Shown here in pieces: positions 2,194-25,648 of a DNA stretch of 64,000 nt. Location: NCBI GenBank assembly GCA_016874675.1, contig VGTL01000004.1, positions 4,949 through 68,948 of the forward strand. The letters run 5' to 3'. Below the pieces are notes generated by a model. That model saw only the letters and a program-made list of their open reading frames with translations, was not told the DNA's origin and searched no databases. The stretch is from Methanobacteriota archaeon. Lineage in GTDB: Archaea; Thermoplasmatota; DTKX01; VGTL01. A program made the translations under genes and the position numbers. Every line of letters begins with the position of its first letter. Positions within the stretch are counted from its first letter, which is position 1.

Positions 2194-2248
2194 CCGGTGC
2201 GGAAAAGCAGGTTCCGACTATTTCATGCTAACGACGGGGCTTTCAACG

Positions 2249-2395
2249 ACCGGGTGCCGGGTGCCGGGTGCCGGGTGGCGGGTGCCGGGTTCCGAGAGGT
2301 TACGGCCATTTCCCGGCCCCCGGCCCCCGACCCCCGGATTCGTCCCTGCCCCCGGCCCCCGGCCCCCGGATTCGTCCCTGCCCCCGGCCCCCGGC
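2249..2395. repeat. Family B palindromic heptamer element, (CCGGGTG)n...(CCCGGCC)n, with two CCGGATTCGTCCC cores
   Basis: Cores at 2334-2346 and 2366-2378 (32-bp period). Confidence 0.85.
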
Positions 2396-2449
2396 TTTCA
2401 CCAACCTCCCCAAAGGGCTTAAGTAGGCCCGCACGCGCTATCAATACCG

Positions 2450-12303: not shown

Positions 12304-12435
12304 AAGGCGCATGGCGCGAGGGCCAGGGCGCAAGGAGCAAGCATTGGTCAGGGGATTCATCCCAAGGCCCTGCGCCCTGCGCCCTCCGCCTTGCGCCTTC
12401 TAGCCTTGCGCCTTGCGCCCTGCGCCCTGCGCCTT
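12304..12435. repeat. Family A element overlapping the 3' end of the S8 gene
   Basis: Heptamer arms; S8 stop at 12400-12402 lies inside the right arm. Confidence 0.85.
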
Positions 12436-14745
12436 CCTCCTGCGGTCCCAGAAGTAATAGGCCGCCCCCGCGGCGACGGCGGCGGCCAGGAGGCCCAGGA
12501 TGAGCGGCAGGTTGTCCGGCCTGACGACGGGCTTCGGCGGGGGCTTCTCCTCGACGAGCCGGCTGAAGTCGTAGAAGTGGCGCGGCAGCACCATCGTGAC
12601 AGTGCCGTTGGGGTCGAAGGGCCCGAACTGCCACTGGGCGTAGGCGGCGCGGAGGTCCACCTCCGGGACCCTGATCTCCCCGGAGCCCTGAAACATCGCC
12701 TGGATTCCCAGCGTGTAGTGGACCAGGACCTCGCGGAACTGGTTGAAGACGGGGTTGTCCTTGCCGATCACGGGGAGCTTGAAGTAGGTCCCCTCGACGT
12801 AGAAGTCGACCACGGAGCCGGCGCCCAGAGTGGAGGCCCCGACCTCGTCGTGCTTCCAGCCGGAGTGCTGCCAGCCGCCCTGGCCGCGCCAGTCCATCGA
12901 GCCGTCGCGGTTGGTGTCCACCGCCACGGTGAGCTCGCCGACGGCCTTCTCGCTGCCGATGATCGGGTCGTAGTTGAGGTCGATTATCAGGGTGCTGGCG
13001 TTCTGGGGGACGTACACGGAGCGGGCGTGGCTCGTCACGAGGGTGTTGCGCGCGTCGAGGAGGTACCCCCAGTCGCCCCTCCAGCTCGTCACGAGGCTGC
13101 TCGTGGGATACTTCACATCGCCCGTCTTGTGCAGTCCGCCGGAGCGCTTGAACGCCCGGAACGCCTCCATGACGGTGGCGCAGGCGTCGGCGCGGCGCAT
13201 CTCCTCGAGTACGAGGCTGACCTGGACCGCCCGGCTGGCGTTGATCAGGCCGTAGCCCTGGGCGAAGTCGTGGGGCCGCTCATCGAACTCGGCCGAGCCG
13301 GTGGAGTTGTTGGCGGGGACGCCGTTGCTCTCCGTCGAGGGCATGTAGTCGGAGGTGAGCTTGAGGACGTACTCCGCCTCGGTTATCCGCGTGTTCGGGT
13401 CGGCGTGCCAGGCCGCCTGGTCGCCGGCGTGCTCGGAGTGAACCTCGGAGATGCGCAGGCTGGGGCAGGCCTGCATCATCAGCGCCACGCAGCCGGAGAC
13501 GTGGGGCGTCGCCATGGAGGTGCCGCTGATGGACATGTAGTAGGCATCGACCCGGTCCTCCGGGTTCTGCTTGGTCATCGCGGTTATCTGCGTCCCGCGG
13601 GCCTCGGTGGCCCAGATGCGGACGCCCGGGGCCGCGATGTCGGGCCAGGTGTGGTTGAGGTCCGACTGTCCCCGGGAGCTGAACGAGGCCATCCCGTCGC
13701 CGTCGTGGAGGGCCGCCGCCACCTCGACCACGAAGGGGGCGTTGCCGTAGTTGCTGGTCTGGATGGTGCTTCCGTCCACCCCGCCCGAGTTCCCCGCGGC
13801 GAAGACCACGACCACGCCGTTCTCGAACACGAGCTTGCGGTTTATCTGGGTGATGGAGTCCGCCGGGTCGTACTCGCCGGGACCGGCGCCCCAGGAGTTG
13901 GAGCAAACGCGGATGTTGTCGGGGTTGTTGCCCGGCCGGCTGTGCTCGTAGACCCAGGTCAGGGCGCCCAGGACGTTCTGCAGCCAGTGCTCCCCGGTGG
14001 AGATGGAGACGAGCCGGGCCCCGGGCGCCACACCCCGCCGGGCGCCCGCCGAGGCGTCCCCGTTGCCCAGGATGGTCCCGGCGCAGTGCGTCCCGTGGCC
14101 CGAGCCGGTGTCGGAGTCCTGGACCTCGGTGTAGCTTTGGTCGAAGTCCGACTTGAGGTTGATTATCGTCTTGGAGCCGTAGTCCAGGTCGGGGTGGCCG
14201 GCGTCGCAGCCGGTGTCGACGAGGGCCACGGTGACGCCCGTGCCGTCTATCGGGTCCCTGCTGCCGCCGCCCTGGTACAGTATCTCCGAGTTCCAGACGG
14301 TGGTGGCGTTGATGGTGGTGGTGGTGCCGTTCATCAGGAGCTCCATCCTCTGGTTGTGCTCGATGTAGTAGGTGCCCGGGTGGGCAGAAAGCCACTGCAC
14401 CGCCTCCTTGGGGCCGACCGCGTAGACGGCGTCGAGGGGGGCGAACTCGCGCAGAATCCTCATGTTGAGGTTGGCCAGGAGCTGTCGGGTGCTGTCGCCG
14501 ACCGGGCGCTTGAACTGGATGACCGTCTCGAGGGTCCCGTATCGCGGCGTGCGGTCCATCACGGCCCGGAGGGTCTTGTCCATGACATCGGCCGGCTCGT
14601 ACCTTTGGACCGCCTTCGCCGGGGCGGCCGGGCGGGGCAGCTCCAGGGCCGAGGCCGGGAGCGCCAGGACGAGCAATGCGGCGCCCAGGGCGAACGCCGT
14701 CATTGATGTCCGCTGCCTGCCTCGTGGATGCCAGAGCGCGCCCAT
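12400..14745 (-). CDS. Membrane-anchored subtilisin-like S8 serine protease
   Basis: Catalytic VDTG / HGTHCAG / SGTSMATPH; signal peptide; C-terminal TM; alternative start at 14703. Confidence 0.9.
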   Translation of the reverse strand: MGALWHPRGRQRTSMTAFALGAALLVLALPASALELPRPAAPAKAVQRYEPADVMDKTLRAVMDRTPRYGTLETVIQFKRPVGDSTRQLLANLNMRILREFAPLDAVYAVGPKEAVQWLSAHPGTYYIEHNQRMELLMNGTTTTINATTVWNSEILYQGGGSRDPIDGTGVTVALVDTGCDAGHPDLDYGSKTIINLKSDFDQSYTEVQDSDTGSGHGTHCAGTILGNGDASAGARRGVAPGARLVSISTGEHWLQNVLGALTWVYEHSRPGNNPDNIRVCSNSWGAGPGEYDPADSITQINRKLVFENGVVVVFAAGNSGGVDGSTIQTSNYGNAPFVVEVAAALHDGDGMASFSSRGQSDLNHTWPDIAAPGVRIWATEARGTQITAMTKQNPEDRVDAYYMSISGTSMATPHVSGCVALMMQACPSLRISEVHSEHAGDQAAWHADPNTRITEAEYVLKLTSDYMPSTESNGVPANNSTGSAEFDERPHDFAQGYGLINASRAVQVSLVLEEMRRADACATVMEAFRAFKRSGGLHKTGDVKYPTSSLVTSWRGDWGYLLDARNTLVTSHARSVYVPQNASTLIIDLNYDPIIGSEKAVGELTVAVDTNRDGSMDWRGQGGWQHSGWKHDEVGASTLGAGSVVDFYVEGTYFKLPVIGKDNPVFNQFREVLVHYTLGIQAMFQGSGEIRVPEVDLRAAYAQWQFGPFDPNGTVTMVLPRHFYDFSRLVEEKPPPKPVVRPDNLPLILGLLAAAVAAGAAYYFWDRRRKAQGAGRKAQG

Positions 14746-14826: not shown

Positions 14827-15011
14827 GCAGGGCGCAGGGCGCAGGGCGCAAGGCAAGGGACGAGGGCGCAAGGGGCAAGGCGCAAGGCGCGAGGGTGGAT
14901 TGGCTGCAATCGGGAAGCCATTTTCCCACACGCCCTTCCTTGAGCCTTGATCCTTCGGCCTTGTGCCGTCCGCCCTCGTCCCTTGCGCCTTGCGCCATGT
15001 GCCTTGCGCCC
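14827..15011. repeat. Family A palindromic element
   Basis: Heptamer arms flanking a unique centre, between divergent genes. Confidence 0.85.
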
Positions 15012-15046
15012 TCATGTTTATTATCCAACCGACCCAATCACCCGCC

Positions 15047-16327
15047 GTGAGAATCCTCCAGCTCTGTACCCGCTTCCCGCCGGCGCCGGGAGGGGTCGAG
15101 ACCCACGTCCTGGAGATATCCAGGAGGATGCGGCTTGCCGGGCACGAGGTTTCGGTGCTCACCTCGGACCTCTATTCGGAGACGCCGCTCGTACGCATGG
15201 AGAAGTGGGAGCGGGAGGTGGAGGGCGTTCCCGTCCGGCGCTTCCGCGCCTACACGCCCGGCGGGGAGGCTCACTACCTGGTCTACCCGTCCATGAAGGC
15301 GGCGCTCATGAAGGCCCCGGCCGAGGTCGTCCACGCCCACTCCTACGGCTACTTCCAGACCAACCTCCTGCCCCTCGTCCGCAAGCTCCGGCGGCTGCCG
15401 ACGGTCCTCACGGCCCACTTCCACCCCGACTGGTCCACCTGGGGCGGGGAGAAGCGCCGGGGGCTGCGCAAGGTATACGATTCAACGCTGGGGAAGGCCG
15501 TGCTCAACAACGTCGATATAGTAATAGCCCACACGCGAGAGGAGATCGGGCTCATGGAGCAGGTCGGGCTGGACACCTCCGGCAACCGGGTCAGGATCGT
15601 CCCGGCCGGCATAGACTTCGCAAAGTACGAGAGGGTCCCGGACGGGGCGCCCTTCCGGGAGCGTTTCGGCATCGGCCAGGACGAGATGGTCGTGCTCTTC
15701 TCTGGCCGGCTGGCCCAGAACAAGGGGCTGGCGGTGCTTGCAGAGGCCGCGCCGGAGGTGCTCCGGTCCTTCCCGCGCGCGCGCTTCGTGCTCGTCGGGC
15801 AGGACATGGGCGTGCGGGAAAAGCTCGAAAAACGGCTGGGGGAGCTCGGCGTCCGGGACCGGTTCCTGTTCACCGGGCATCTAGATGACGATGCCCTGTT
15901 CCGGTCGGCCTACGGCGCCTGCGACGTGTTCGTGCTGCCATCGGAGTACGAGGCGTTCGGGCTCGTCCTGCTGGAGGCGATGGCGTCCGAGAAACCCGTC
16001 GTGGCCAGTGCAGTCGGGGGGATGCCGGAGGTTCTGGGTGCCGGGAGCCGGGTGCCGGGTGCCGGGACGAATCCGGGTGCGGGGGGCAGGGGGCAGGGGG
16101 CCGGACGGAAAGGGGCGGAAGGGACCGTCACGGCGACCGAGTGCGGCCTGCTGGTGGGGTACGAGGACCGGAAGGCGCTGGCGGAGGCCATCTGCCGGCT
16201 TCTCGGCGACGACGGCATGCGGCGGAGGATGGGGGCGGCCGGGCGCGAGCGCGCCCGCCGGGAGTTCAACTGGGACAGCGTCACGGGGCGGATAATCGAT
16301 ATATACCGGGAACTTTCGGGGCATTGA
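15047..16327 (+). CDS. GT4-family glycosyltransferase carrying an in-frame repeat insertion
   Basis: RILQL..RFPPAPGGVE, VHAHS, GRLAQNKG, VLPSEYEAFGLVLLEAMA; GTG start. Confidence 0.9.
   Translation: MRILQLCTRFPPAPGGVETHVLEISRRMRLAGHEVSVLTSDLYSETPLVRMEKWEREVEGVPVRRFRAYTPGGEAHYLVYPSMKAALMKAPAEVVHAHSYGYFQTNLLPLVRKLRRLPTVLTAHFHPDWSTWGGEKRRGLRKVYDSTLGKAVLNNVDIVIAHTREEIGLMEQVGLDTSGNRVRIVPAGIDFAKYERVPDGAPFRERFGIGQDEMVVLFSGRLAQNKGLAVLAEAAPEVLRSFPRARFVLVGQDMGVREKLEKRLGELGVRDRFLFTGHLDDDALFRSAYGACDVFVLPSEYEAFGLVLLEAMASEKPVVASAVGGMPEVLGAGSRVPGAGTNPGAGGRGQGAGRKGAEGTVTATECGLLVGYEDRKALAEAICRLLGDDGMRRRMGAAGRERARREFNWDSVTGRIIDIYRELSGH
16036..16104. repeat. Family B half-element inside the glycosyltransferase CDS
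   Basis: (CCGGGTG/AG)n plus GGGACGAATCCGG core at 16064-16076. Confidence 0.8.
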
Positions 16328-16363: not shown

Positions 16364-17962
16364 ATGAAGACCAAGTTCGACAACCTCAAGATACGCTCCG
16401 GGGCCCGCGCCTCGACCAAGGCGCAGGAGCGGGCGCTCATCGAGAAGGCCGAGCGGCTCCGCAAGGACCCCGACCTCGCGTTCCCCAGGTGCGAGGGCTC
16501 CTGCTGGTTCTGCGACTTCAAGAGCGGCCGGCGCTCCTGCGAGAAGGTGCTGGACGCCGCTGAAGAAGAGAAGAAGCTCGAGCGGCTCGCCGAGTCGGGC
16601 AACGAGTTCGCCCGCGCCCTCGCCGGCACGCTGCTCCTGCGCAAGCAGGGAAAGGTGCCGTACCTCTTCGCGCTCAAGACGCCCTTCGGGGAGGTGGCCT
16701 ACGCCATCCGGGGCAGCGTCAAGAAGGAACGCCTCGTGATGATGCAGCACTTCGACCACCCCCGGGCAAAGCTCCTGGGCGTGGTCGACCTCGTGAGGGA
16801 CAAGAAGCTCCACATCTTCGCATTCGAGGACCGGATGGTGTGCACCGGCCGGGACCCGCGGCCGCCGGAGGGCTTCGTGGATTACCTCGTGGGGCAGCTC
16901 AAGACGCCCCTGGACAAGTACGGCCGAAACTACCTGTGCCGCCATCTGGCCGACACCAGGGCCGCAAAGCACATCGCGCCCCTTCCGCACCTGGAGATAT
17001 CCTGGAAGCCCGCCGGCGTGGCGCTGCGCCTTTGCGAGAGGTGCGCCCGGCCCGGGGAGAACACCCTGCTCTCGATGCTCACCTACATGGCGATACCCAA
17101 CCCGCGGCTGGAGTTCGACTTCAGCGCCAGGGGCGGCTTCGAGTGCGAGGGCAAGTGCGAGGGCTGCCGCATCCCGCAGGTCGAGATGGACCAAAAGACC
17201 AGGGAGAAGTACGTCCACGGGGAGCTTGACGACCGGGGGCTCATCGAGAAGCAGACCATCAAGGGCCTGCAGGCCATCCGGGAGGGCGGCGTCAAGGTCT
17301 ACATCCTGGGCCGCCGCTGCTTCGGCAAGGACCTGGACGCCTTCATCGACGCCCTGAACCCCAACGAGGAGGAGCGCATAGGGCTGACGACCGTGCTCAA
17401 GACCGTCAAGGGCCCGGTGGTCGTCGAGGGCGAGACCGCCGCGGCGATGCTCGAGAAGTTCTGGGAGGAGCACGGCGAGGCTGCCATGGAGGCGGTCTGC
17501 GGCGACCGGGAGGTGGCCTGCGGCCTCATGGAGAAGTACAGGGGCACCAAGATGGGCCCGTCCCAGCTCCTCAAGGAGGCCATCGCCTGCGTACGCCAAA
17601 AGGAGATCATCTCGCAGCTGCCGGTCTACGGGAAACTACCGGCGGTGGCGAAGTTCGCCGACGAGATGGCCCGCATCTACTTCACGCGGGGGAAGGAGGA
17701 CGCCGCCCGGGCGATAGGGGACTTCACCTCCGAGGACAGCGGGGTGAAGTCGACGGCGTACGCATTCCTGCTCGCGATGGGCATCGAGGCCAACAGGCAG
17801 TGGCAGTACATGGTCCACGAGCGGGAGTTCGCCGAGTACCTCCTGCCCGCCGCCAGGAAGTTCCTGGAATCGACCCCGGAGACCTACCACCAGAACCTCC
17901 AGGCGATGCTCTCCGCCACCGGCTCCACCGAGACCATTCCGGAGCCGAAGAGGAAATCATAA
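16364..17962 (+). CDS. Cys-rich hypothetical protein (532 aa)
   Basis: Good codon usage; CEGSCWFC, LCRH, CERC and CEGKCEGC clusters. Confidence 0.75.
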   Translation: MKTKFDNLKIRSGARASTKAQERALIEKAERLRKDPDLAFPRCEGSCWFCDFKSGRRSCEKVLDAAEEEKKLERLAESGNEFARALAGTLLLRKQGKVPYLFALKTPFGEVAYAIRGSVKKERLVMMQHFDHPRAKLLGVVDLVRDKKLHIFAFEDRMVCTGRDPRPPEGFVDYLVGQLKTPLDKYGRNYLCRHLADTRAAKHIAPLPHLEISWKPAGVALRLCERCARPGENTLLSMLTYMAIPNPRLEFDFSARGGFECEGKCEGCRIPQVEMDQKTREKYVHGELDDRGLIEKQTIKGLQAIREGGVKVYILGRRCFGKDLDAFIDALNPNEEERIGLTTVLKTVKGPVVVEGETAAAMLEKFWEEHGEAAMEAVCGDREVACGLMEKYRGTKMGPSQLLKEAIACVRQKEIISQLPVYGKLPAVAKFADEMARIYFTRGKEDAARAIGDFTSEDSGVKSTAYAFLLAMGIEANRQWQYMVHEREFAEYLLPAARKFLESTPETYHQNLQAMLSATGSTETIPEPKRKS

Positions 17963-25508: not shown

Positions 25509-25599
25509 CCCGGGGGCCGGGACGAATCCGGGTGCCGGGAGCCGGGAGCCGGGAGCCGGGAACGACGCATCGTACCCGGCACCCGGCACCCGGCACCCT
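25509..25599. repeat. Family B palindromic element
   Basis: Core GGGACGAATCCGG at 25519-25531; (CCGGGAG)n and (CCCGGCA)n arms. Confidence 0.85.
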
Positions 25600-25648
25600 G
25601 TATCGCCGTCATGCATACTTTCATATCCCGCCCGGCCGATTCTGTGCC

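Follow-up and report, generated by a model that had tools for sequence, protein, structure and literature searches.

Rickettsia palindromic elements (RPEs) and further repeats within genes that resemble MITEs (transposable elements of the miniature inverted-repeat type), such as ERIC and BOX, are fused in frame to the open reading frames (ORFs) of their hosts (PMC10969869). G-rich heptameric simple sequence repeats (SSRs) have been described between genes, with the units GGGAATC in Xanthomonas and GGGGA(T/C)T in Nostoc, as well as the STRR repeats of cyanobacteria (PMC4692102). In Borgs, tandem repeats create intrinsically disordered regions in proteins, and the repeat units found in ORFs are all divisible by three (PMC9879509). 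Here we analyzed a stretch of 64,000 nt (hereafter the window) from contig VGTL01000004.1 of a Thermoplasmatota archaeon (assembly GCA_016874675.1), in which a gene for a GT4 glycosyltransferase (GT) carries an enlarged loop. Most of the DNA encoding this loop resembles a family of hairpin repeats, family B, and the extra loop is probably the translated G-rich arm of such a repeat, including the first part of its apex; repeats of this type fill the intergenic spacers of the genome.

This locus shares properties with each of these systems. As with RPEs, a dispersed, multi-copy and mostly non-coding repeat family is found in frame and without stop codons in many unrelated housekeeping genes; the hosts remain intact and constrained, and the inserts lie at permissive surface sites where the fold tolerates them. 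However, an RPE is a discrete element of ~150 bp whose peptide is conserved, whereas we observed a variable array of 7- to 8-nt units. The GT copy also presents a single arm instead of a palindrome, it lacks defined ends, the site was already enlarged and the host is an archaeon. The SSRs of Xanthomonas and Nostoc are likewise tandem 7-nt units with a tract of three or more G (G3+), present in hundreds of copies, variable in copy number, over-represented between genes, under-represented in coding DNA and potentially able to form G-quadruplexes; in the archaeal lineage too, both the unit and the copy number vary among relatives. These SSRs have been described as non-coding, whereas the array studied here is presumably translated. 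Moreover, many units coexist in this genome, often paired as hairpins of a G-rich arm (G-arm) and a C-rich arm (C-arm) around an apex, and they are accompanied by an 11-nt signature. Finally, the locus resembles the Borg repeats, which are fast-evolving nucleotide tandem repeats in archaeal ORFs that yield disordered, lineage-specific segments. Borg repeats encode perfect amino-acid repeats, whereas here the frame is kept by the total length of the 7-nt units only, each of the unit's three frames being read in turn along the peptide.

Repeat-like DNA in the glycosyltransferase loop

The segment located between the conserved motifs GGxPE[VI][VI] and G[LI]L[V] is 35 residues long in the present protein. 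For comparison, we parsed this segment in 70 homologues from other Thermoplasmatota genomes: it comprises 5 residues in 64 of them, 6 residues in three, and 3, 4 and 14 residues in single genomes. Within the same genome, the most similar paralogue, C112 (50% identity), also has the canonical form GGVPEVV-DDGST-GLLV (GGVPEVVDDGSTGLLV). Alignments to homologues from the PDB run to residue 344 and restart at residue 371, and at the loop the alignment with 6kih skips 2 residues in 6kih and 33 in the query. In an unrelated lineage (L055; Thermoplasmatota metagenome-assembled genome JBFILE010000033.1), an independent 14-residue loop, GGQAGATGVEVAEG, was observed at the same GT4 site. The initial annotation, made from the letters of the window, had proposed that about 30 extra residues are present where GT4 enzymes normally have only a few, and both statements are confirmed by these counts. 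The ORF translation around the loop (GGMPEVLGAGSRVPGAGTNPGAGGRGQGAGRKGAEGTVTATECGLLV) is identical to the peptide quoted there.

The DNA of this loop is built from two heptamer arrays that flank an 11-nt segment (Table 1). Positions 16036-16104 of the window, which correspond to 23 codons, are a copy of the G-arm of the family B heptad-array hairpin element. In the first array, Tandem Repeats Finder (TRF) reported a period of 7 with the consensus GGGTGCC (4.4 copies; 91% matches), and this array belongs to a repeat family, D13, that is also found at 2239-2303 and 25524-25560. In the second array, the period of 7 has the consensus GGGGGCA (2.9 copies). We compared positions 16029-16135 to the whole genome with blastn and obtained 112 high-scoring segment pairs over 16036-16104 (positions 8-76 of the query), with 82-91% identity over 51-69 nt and E-values down to 9e-17. 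The matches to family B copies stop at 16104.

The segment between the two arrays, GGGACGAATCC, is not a heptamer. It is found in 11 copies in the genome relative to 2.4 expected, and nine of these copies lie inside GGGTGCC or GGGGGCC arrays; when extended with its flanks (CCGGGACGAATCCGGG), it is found in 6 copies relative to 0.01 expected. In addition, the loop shares an exact match of 27 nt with an intergenic copy at C83:1005. The order of the units in the loop is also that of the intergenic copies at 25514-25600 of the window and in contigs C83, C108, C43 and C36, which consist of a first G-arm, GGGACGAATCC, a second G-arm, an apex (GGGACGGAGGCGTC... or GGGAACGACGCATCGT...) and a C-arm, (CCCGGCA)n. 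Downstream of the second array, the loop reads GGACGGAAAGGGGCGGAAGGGACCGTCACGG. This apex-like segment encodes RKGAEGTVT, presents a short ACGG...CCGT stem that is retained in the fold centroid (local fold z = -2.2) and bears a weak similarity to the apex GGGACGGAGGCGTC seen in the C43 and C36 copies.

No C-rich partner arm was found within 500 nt of the gene copy. Given this missing arm and a local fold z of only -2.2, we rejected the possibility that a hairpin forms within the gene. The sense strand of the loop contains nine G3+ tracts within 70 nt, whose formation of a G-quadruplex is only a potential. The initial annotation had described a family B half-element with its core, and the G-arm, the signature, the apex-like stem and the absence of a C-arm agree with this description, the apex being its weakest part. 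The proposed repeat origin was established for ~23 of the ~30 extra residues, and nine extra residues are older than the array.

Table 1. Coordinates of the loop, its host gene, reference repeats and other in-frame hosts (positions refer to the window unless a contig of the genome, G000, is given)
Feature	Position	Strand	Basis or remark
GT4 (GT-B) glycosyltransferase gene	15014..16327	+	ORF list, Pfam, PDB matches, AlphaFold2 (AF2), Foldseek, dN/dS
GGMPEVL, conserved GGxPE motif directly before the loop	16016..16036	+	alignment A1, sequence
Expanded loop, 35 residues, GAGSRVPGAGTNPGAGGRGQGAGRKGAEGTVTATEC	16037..16141	+	canonical length 5, clade basal length 14
First heptamer array, GGGTGCC GGGAGCC GGGTGCC GGGTGCC	16036..16063	+	TRF 16036-16066
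GGGACGAATCC, 11-nt family B signature breaking up the G-arm	16064..16074	+	genome count
Second heptamer array, GGGTGCG GGGGGCA GGGGGCA GGGGGCC	16075..16102	+	TRF 16082-16101, blastn
Apex-like segment, GCCGGACGG...CCGTCACGGC	16101..16134	+	fold centroid stem, side-by-side display
Complete family B element between genes: G-arm containing GGGACGAATCC, apex GGGAACGACGCATCGTACCC, C-arm (CCCGGCA)n	25514..25600	+	reference intact form
Second complete family B element, opposite arrangement, two copies of GGATTCGTCCC	2239..2400	+	repeat search
In-frame array host loci (G000)	C12:33260-36877, C3:58776-59891, C93:10033-11649, C66:6698-7876, C44:10054-11550		Pfam
Further in-frame array host loci (G000)	C14 (minus strand); C4, a short way upstream of the window (minus strand)		

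Host enzyme and evolution of the loop

The ORF that hosts the array spans 14963..16327 on the forward strand. Its probable start is the ATG at 15014, which yields a product of 437 amino acids, or the annotated GTG at 15047, which yields 426 amino acids. Both halves of the enzyme are recognized by Pfam: Glyco_transf_4 in the N-terminal half (1.2e-22; 81.2 bits for a cut-off of 28.5) and Glycos_transf_1 in the C-terminal half (2.7e-37; 128.4 bits for a cut-off of 26.4), the latter match ending at residue 345. A PDB search identified GlgM, sucrose-phosphate synthase (SPS), MshA and PimA as the closest solved relatives. The protein shares with the GT4 family (GlgM 6tvp, SPS 6kih, MshA 3c4q, PimA 2gej, BshA 5d00) the two Pfam halves, the EX7E motif (PSEYEAFGLVLLEAMA; E-AFGLVLL-E), the GGxPE motif and the two-Rossmann fold, and differs from it by a turn of 35 residues after GGxPE compared to ~5. 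Both the EX7E motif and GGMPEV form invariant columns in the orthologue alignment A1.

The structure prediction that the initial annotation had suggested as a check yielded a confident fold with an unstructured insert. The AF2 model, based on an alignment of 26 sequences, presents a complete two-Rossmann GT-B fold (predicted local distance difference test, pLDDT, 87.3; predicted template modelling score, pTM, 0.86), and Foldseek matched it to 6tvp, 6kih, 3c4q and 2jjm (E-values of 1e-24 to 1e-19; TM 0.7-0.83). The array lies in the C-terminal Rossmann domain, immediately after the GGxPE motif. Residues 330-360 have no secondary structure in the model and pLDDT falls below 50 only at residues 337-355 (P0001 numbering), relative to 88-94 in the adjoining blocks. 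The site is thus permissive, being disordered in the model and variable in length across the clade. These results suggest that the fold is undisturbed and that the insert is predicted to form a disordered surface loop rich in Gly, Ala, Arg and Pro.

We further estimated the ratio of non-synonymous to synonymous substitution rates (dN/dS) relative to five orthologues. This ratio is 0.10-0.14 before the loop (303-330 codons) and 0.17-0.38 after the loop (61 codons), and the latter values indicate that the reading frame located 3' of the array is in use. The gene is intact, with both flanks of the loop under purifying selection. We rejected a pseudogene based on the two Pfam halves, the confident fold and the dN/dS ratios. 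An assembly artefact was rejected as the main explanation, since the reading frame is preserved, the part downstream of the array is under constraint and the identical 437-aa product is recorded in NCBI and JGI on 4 contigs (up to 87,178 bp long; 76,598 bp for the present contig).

To follow the history of the site, we used a set of 20 orthologues with 60-85% identity, which was obtained from a search of 5.8 billion proteins. All members of this clade present an enlarged loop, from 14 to ~54 residues. The common loop of the clade comprises 14 residues and reads GGPNKV[EDA]GV... or G[AE]PSPP[KR]G...; the basal GGPNKV[EDA]G loop is conserved in DNA across 6 or more lineages and shows no period-7 signal. 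A tree of the N-terminal 323 columns places the 14-residue loop as ancestral in the crown group. A scan of metagenomes yielded six close relatives, every one with the basal loop, and a further scan of contigs yielded outgroups only (<=53% identity). Since the basal loop of the clade already has 14 residues, the array replaced or extended an existing loop.

Heptamer arrays are found in four crown-group alleles: the present allele, P0002, P0010 and P0007. The loop of P0002 (L021) is a perfect (GGGTGCA)x3.9 array and the loop of P0010 (L022) is an (AAGGCGC)x4.6 array according to TRF, AAGGCGC being the commonest unit of the genome's 'family A'. For P0007, the unit GGGGGCC was deduced from the peptide GGRGPGA alone, as a forced translation. 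The piece G-R-[KN]-G-[PA]-x-G is common to the present allele, P0007 and P0010, and these sequences suggest that the three may derive from a common expanded ancestor. The GT genes of P0002 (L021) and P0009 (L026) are identical in DNA (100%) over ~1 kb, diverge ~10 nt before the loop and present 50-87% identity beyond it; both contigs end near the gene. This break at the array reflects either recombination at this point or a chimeric assembly.

A second length-variable site was observed in the enzyme at columns 80-100 of A1 (query residues ~67-70; ~15210 in the window), where P0008, P0018/G001 and P0021 present 9-20 added Gly/Ala/Pro-rich residues after ...VRLxxW. In G001, a genome of the sister genus, the loop DNA (L002:2545-2690) is a single-copy sequence with a GGGGAG...CTCCCC inverted repeat. 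The order of an S8 protease gene (minus strand), the GT gene and a 531-aa gene is kept wherever contigs show the neighbours. This last gene (16364-17962, forward strand; 531-532 amino acids) encodes several Cys-x2-Cys pairs, its orthologues have no recorded Pfam match, and it is syntenic with the GT gene in most relatives whose contigs reach it. The two genes are separated in L021 by a cupin gene and a gene for a 155-aa protein, and in L025 a different, minus-strand gene lies downstream of the GT gene.

Arrays across the genome and in other coding hosts

The genome (3.36 Mb; 66.3% GC) is rich in tandem arrays of 7- and 8-nt units, many of which form pairs, with a G-rich and a C-rich arm on either side of an apex. 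TRF identified 1083 merged arrays of period 7 or 8, for a total of 67 kb. About 30 of these 1083 arrays are located inside ~24 ORFs that present a coding-type GC-content at third codon positions (GC3) on both flanks, a census that relies on a heuristic GC3 filter and not on gene calls. Coding DNA shows a strong depletion of arrays. For seven hosts, Pfam confirmed the identity: HdrA-like, Kae1/TsaD, ThiI, ThyA-like, DUF1611, PolB and DHH/RecJ-like proteins. Several hosts contain both arms in frame, and the forced peptides GAGCRVPGAG and PAPGTRHPAPG recur among them. The glycosyltransferase is one instance of this genome-wide pattern.

Virtually all array units (99%) are free of stop codons in all six frames. 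We rejected an adaptation of the arrays to this effect, because 98% of the units obtained by shuffling their letters are likewise stop-free, which points to composition. With stop-free arrays, the total length alone decides the frame, and the length added in the GT gene keeps it. The S8 subtilisin-like protease gene upstream of the GT gene (12400-14745, minus strand) ends with ...RRRKAQGAGRKAQG, and its C-terminal tail is read from a heptamer array (12367-12436 of the window) located at the gene's 3' end.

We also searched the relatives for a pattern of five G3N4 units. This pattern was found 334 times in the present genome, 132 times in G001 and ~0-4 times in most other relatives. Poly-G runs of 80-130 nt (G009:C34:23578-23707 and G004:C52:4127-4204) inflate the counts of this pattern; these runs in the assemblies of relatives are probably sequencing or assembly artefacts.

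Origin of the array in coding DNA

As the best fit to these observations, we propose a process that would start with the seeding of an array on a proto-unit of the old loop (CTGGGCGCC in relatives and CTGGGTGCC here), and new units would then be added by slippage. Arrays located elsewhere in the same genome would subsequently be copied into the site by gene conversion or template switching. Such ectopic copying would reproduce in the gene the composite order of the intergenic elements, (GGGTGCC)n-GGGACGAATCC-(GGGKGCS)n, and the same process would explain the units GGGTGCA, AAGGCGC and probably GGGGGCC found at this site in sister alleles.

Several observations weigh against this proposal. No donor-recipient event was directly observed, and the best match, at 91% over 56 nt, points to no particular donor locus. 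The last ~30 nt of the loop DNA, the apex-like part, have no significant match to other copies, blastn stopping short of them. The branching of the three heptamer-bearing orthologues in the tree is as compatible with one ancestral array and turnover of its units as with several independent acquisitions. Translation of the loop itself is what we infer from the conserved downstream frame. In addition, loops without heptamers are found at the same site, with 52 residues in G001/P0018 and 30 residues in P0021, and the loop DNA of G001 occurs only once in its own genome. This indicates that long loops also arise otherwise. According to the initial annotation, an equally long loop in orthologues without the repeat family would refute its reading. 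This is half the case: the loop of G001 is longer and has no heptamers, but the genome of G001 does contain G3N4 arrays. The site is a hot spot of length growth in general, to which repeat arrays contribute as one source.

Purely local growth of a microsatellite by slippage, with a likeness to family B that results from convergence under the same mutational bias, is the alternative that survives best, although we regard it as unlikely. Near-units are present at the junction in relatives (CTGGGCGCC in L110), the basal loop contains CAAGG where L022 has an AAGGCGC array, the units of the orthologues differ by 1-2 substitutions and there is no target-site duplication. However, slippage cannot produce the 11-nt non-repeat GGGACGAATCC with identical flanks, which is common to 8 other array loci, nor does it account for the exact 27-nt match to another array locus.

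A slightly less probable alternative is a transposition of the MITE or RPE type, in which a palindromic element was inserted by a transposase acting in trans and later lost its C-arm. The family is indeed dispersed, the apexes of the C108 and C4:7284 copies are identical (GGGAAATGGCCGTAACCTCTCGGAA), and both arms are in frame in the HdrA-like, Kae1 and PolB genes. However, we saw no target-site duplication or direct repeat at the loop junctions in the comparison with relatives, and neither defined termini nor a terminal inverted repeat for the gene copy, which also lacks the C-arm. The old 8-residue segment of the relatives was replaced and not interrupted, no precise empty site being seen in these relatives, and the lengths and units of the arms vary continuously among copies in the manner of microsatellites. 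We infer that the array arose by a microsatellite- or conversion-like process and not by cut-and-paste transposition. The parallel with RPEs drawn in the initial annotation thus applies to the outcome, an in-frame addition to an intact protein under selection, and not to any demonstrated mechanism.

The loop could also be a selected functional segment, i.e., a disordered Gly/Arg-rich docking or regulatory region for which the repeat served as raw material, and we give this possibility about the same low weight as transposition. The enlarged loop is kept throughout the clade with a conserved basal GGPNKVEG, and the disorder-creating tandem repeats of Borgs have been reported to be under selection (PMC9879509). 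However, the sequence, the type of unit and the length are not conserved even among orthologues with 80-87% identity, and the peptide is a forced translation of the DNA unit, with GAGCRVP recurring in unrelated proteins. Most likely, the peptide is tolerated as a passenger and has no function of its own.

Switching on and off by slippage is known for bacterial lipooligosaccharide glycosyltransferases. A contingency locus of this kind, in which the 7-nt tract would toggle the enzyme, fits a unit that is not a multiple of three, a glycosyltransferase host, an array that precedes the last 60 residues required for the GT-B fold and an array length that varies among orthologues, but it is very improbable given that at most 2 consecutive units are perfect (TRF: 4.4 copies at 91% matches), that five of five sequenced alleles are in frame, that the downstream part is under purifying selection and that essential genes, among them Kae1 and PolB, harbour the same arrays.

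Overall, this locus adds a further example of flexible protein loops that derive from non-coding repeats and does not constitute a new kind of system. It provides evidence at the DNA level that archaeal non-coding arrays become protein sequence at a permissive site of a conserved enzyme, and that sister lineages rewrite this site in different ways, which bears on the origin of disordered loops in prokaryotic proteins. With a single gene, conserved synteny and alleles with and without arrays, it constitutes a comparable locus for weighing slippage, conversion and transposition. In practice, such loops inflate protein lengths and break matches to hidden Markov models, and assemblies tend to break or turn chimeric at these positions. 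We further propose, tentatively, that active copying and homogenization among G3N4 arrays, by ectopic conversion or template switching, takes place genome-wide, also inside coding DNA, and that a single loop has been rewritten repeatedly, lineage by lineage (GGGTGCC, GGGTGCA, GGGGGCC, AAGGCGC), with the array also acting as a recombination breakpoint (the mosaic of P0002 and P0009); we consider this a possibility that still falls well short of an even chance. If true, archaeal housekeeping proteins would acquire disordered loops from a repeat-driven generator that has not been described so far, distinct from transposon-type RPEs and from tandem repeats built of codon units.

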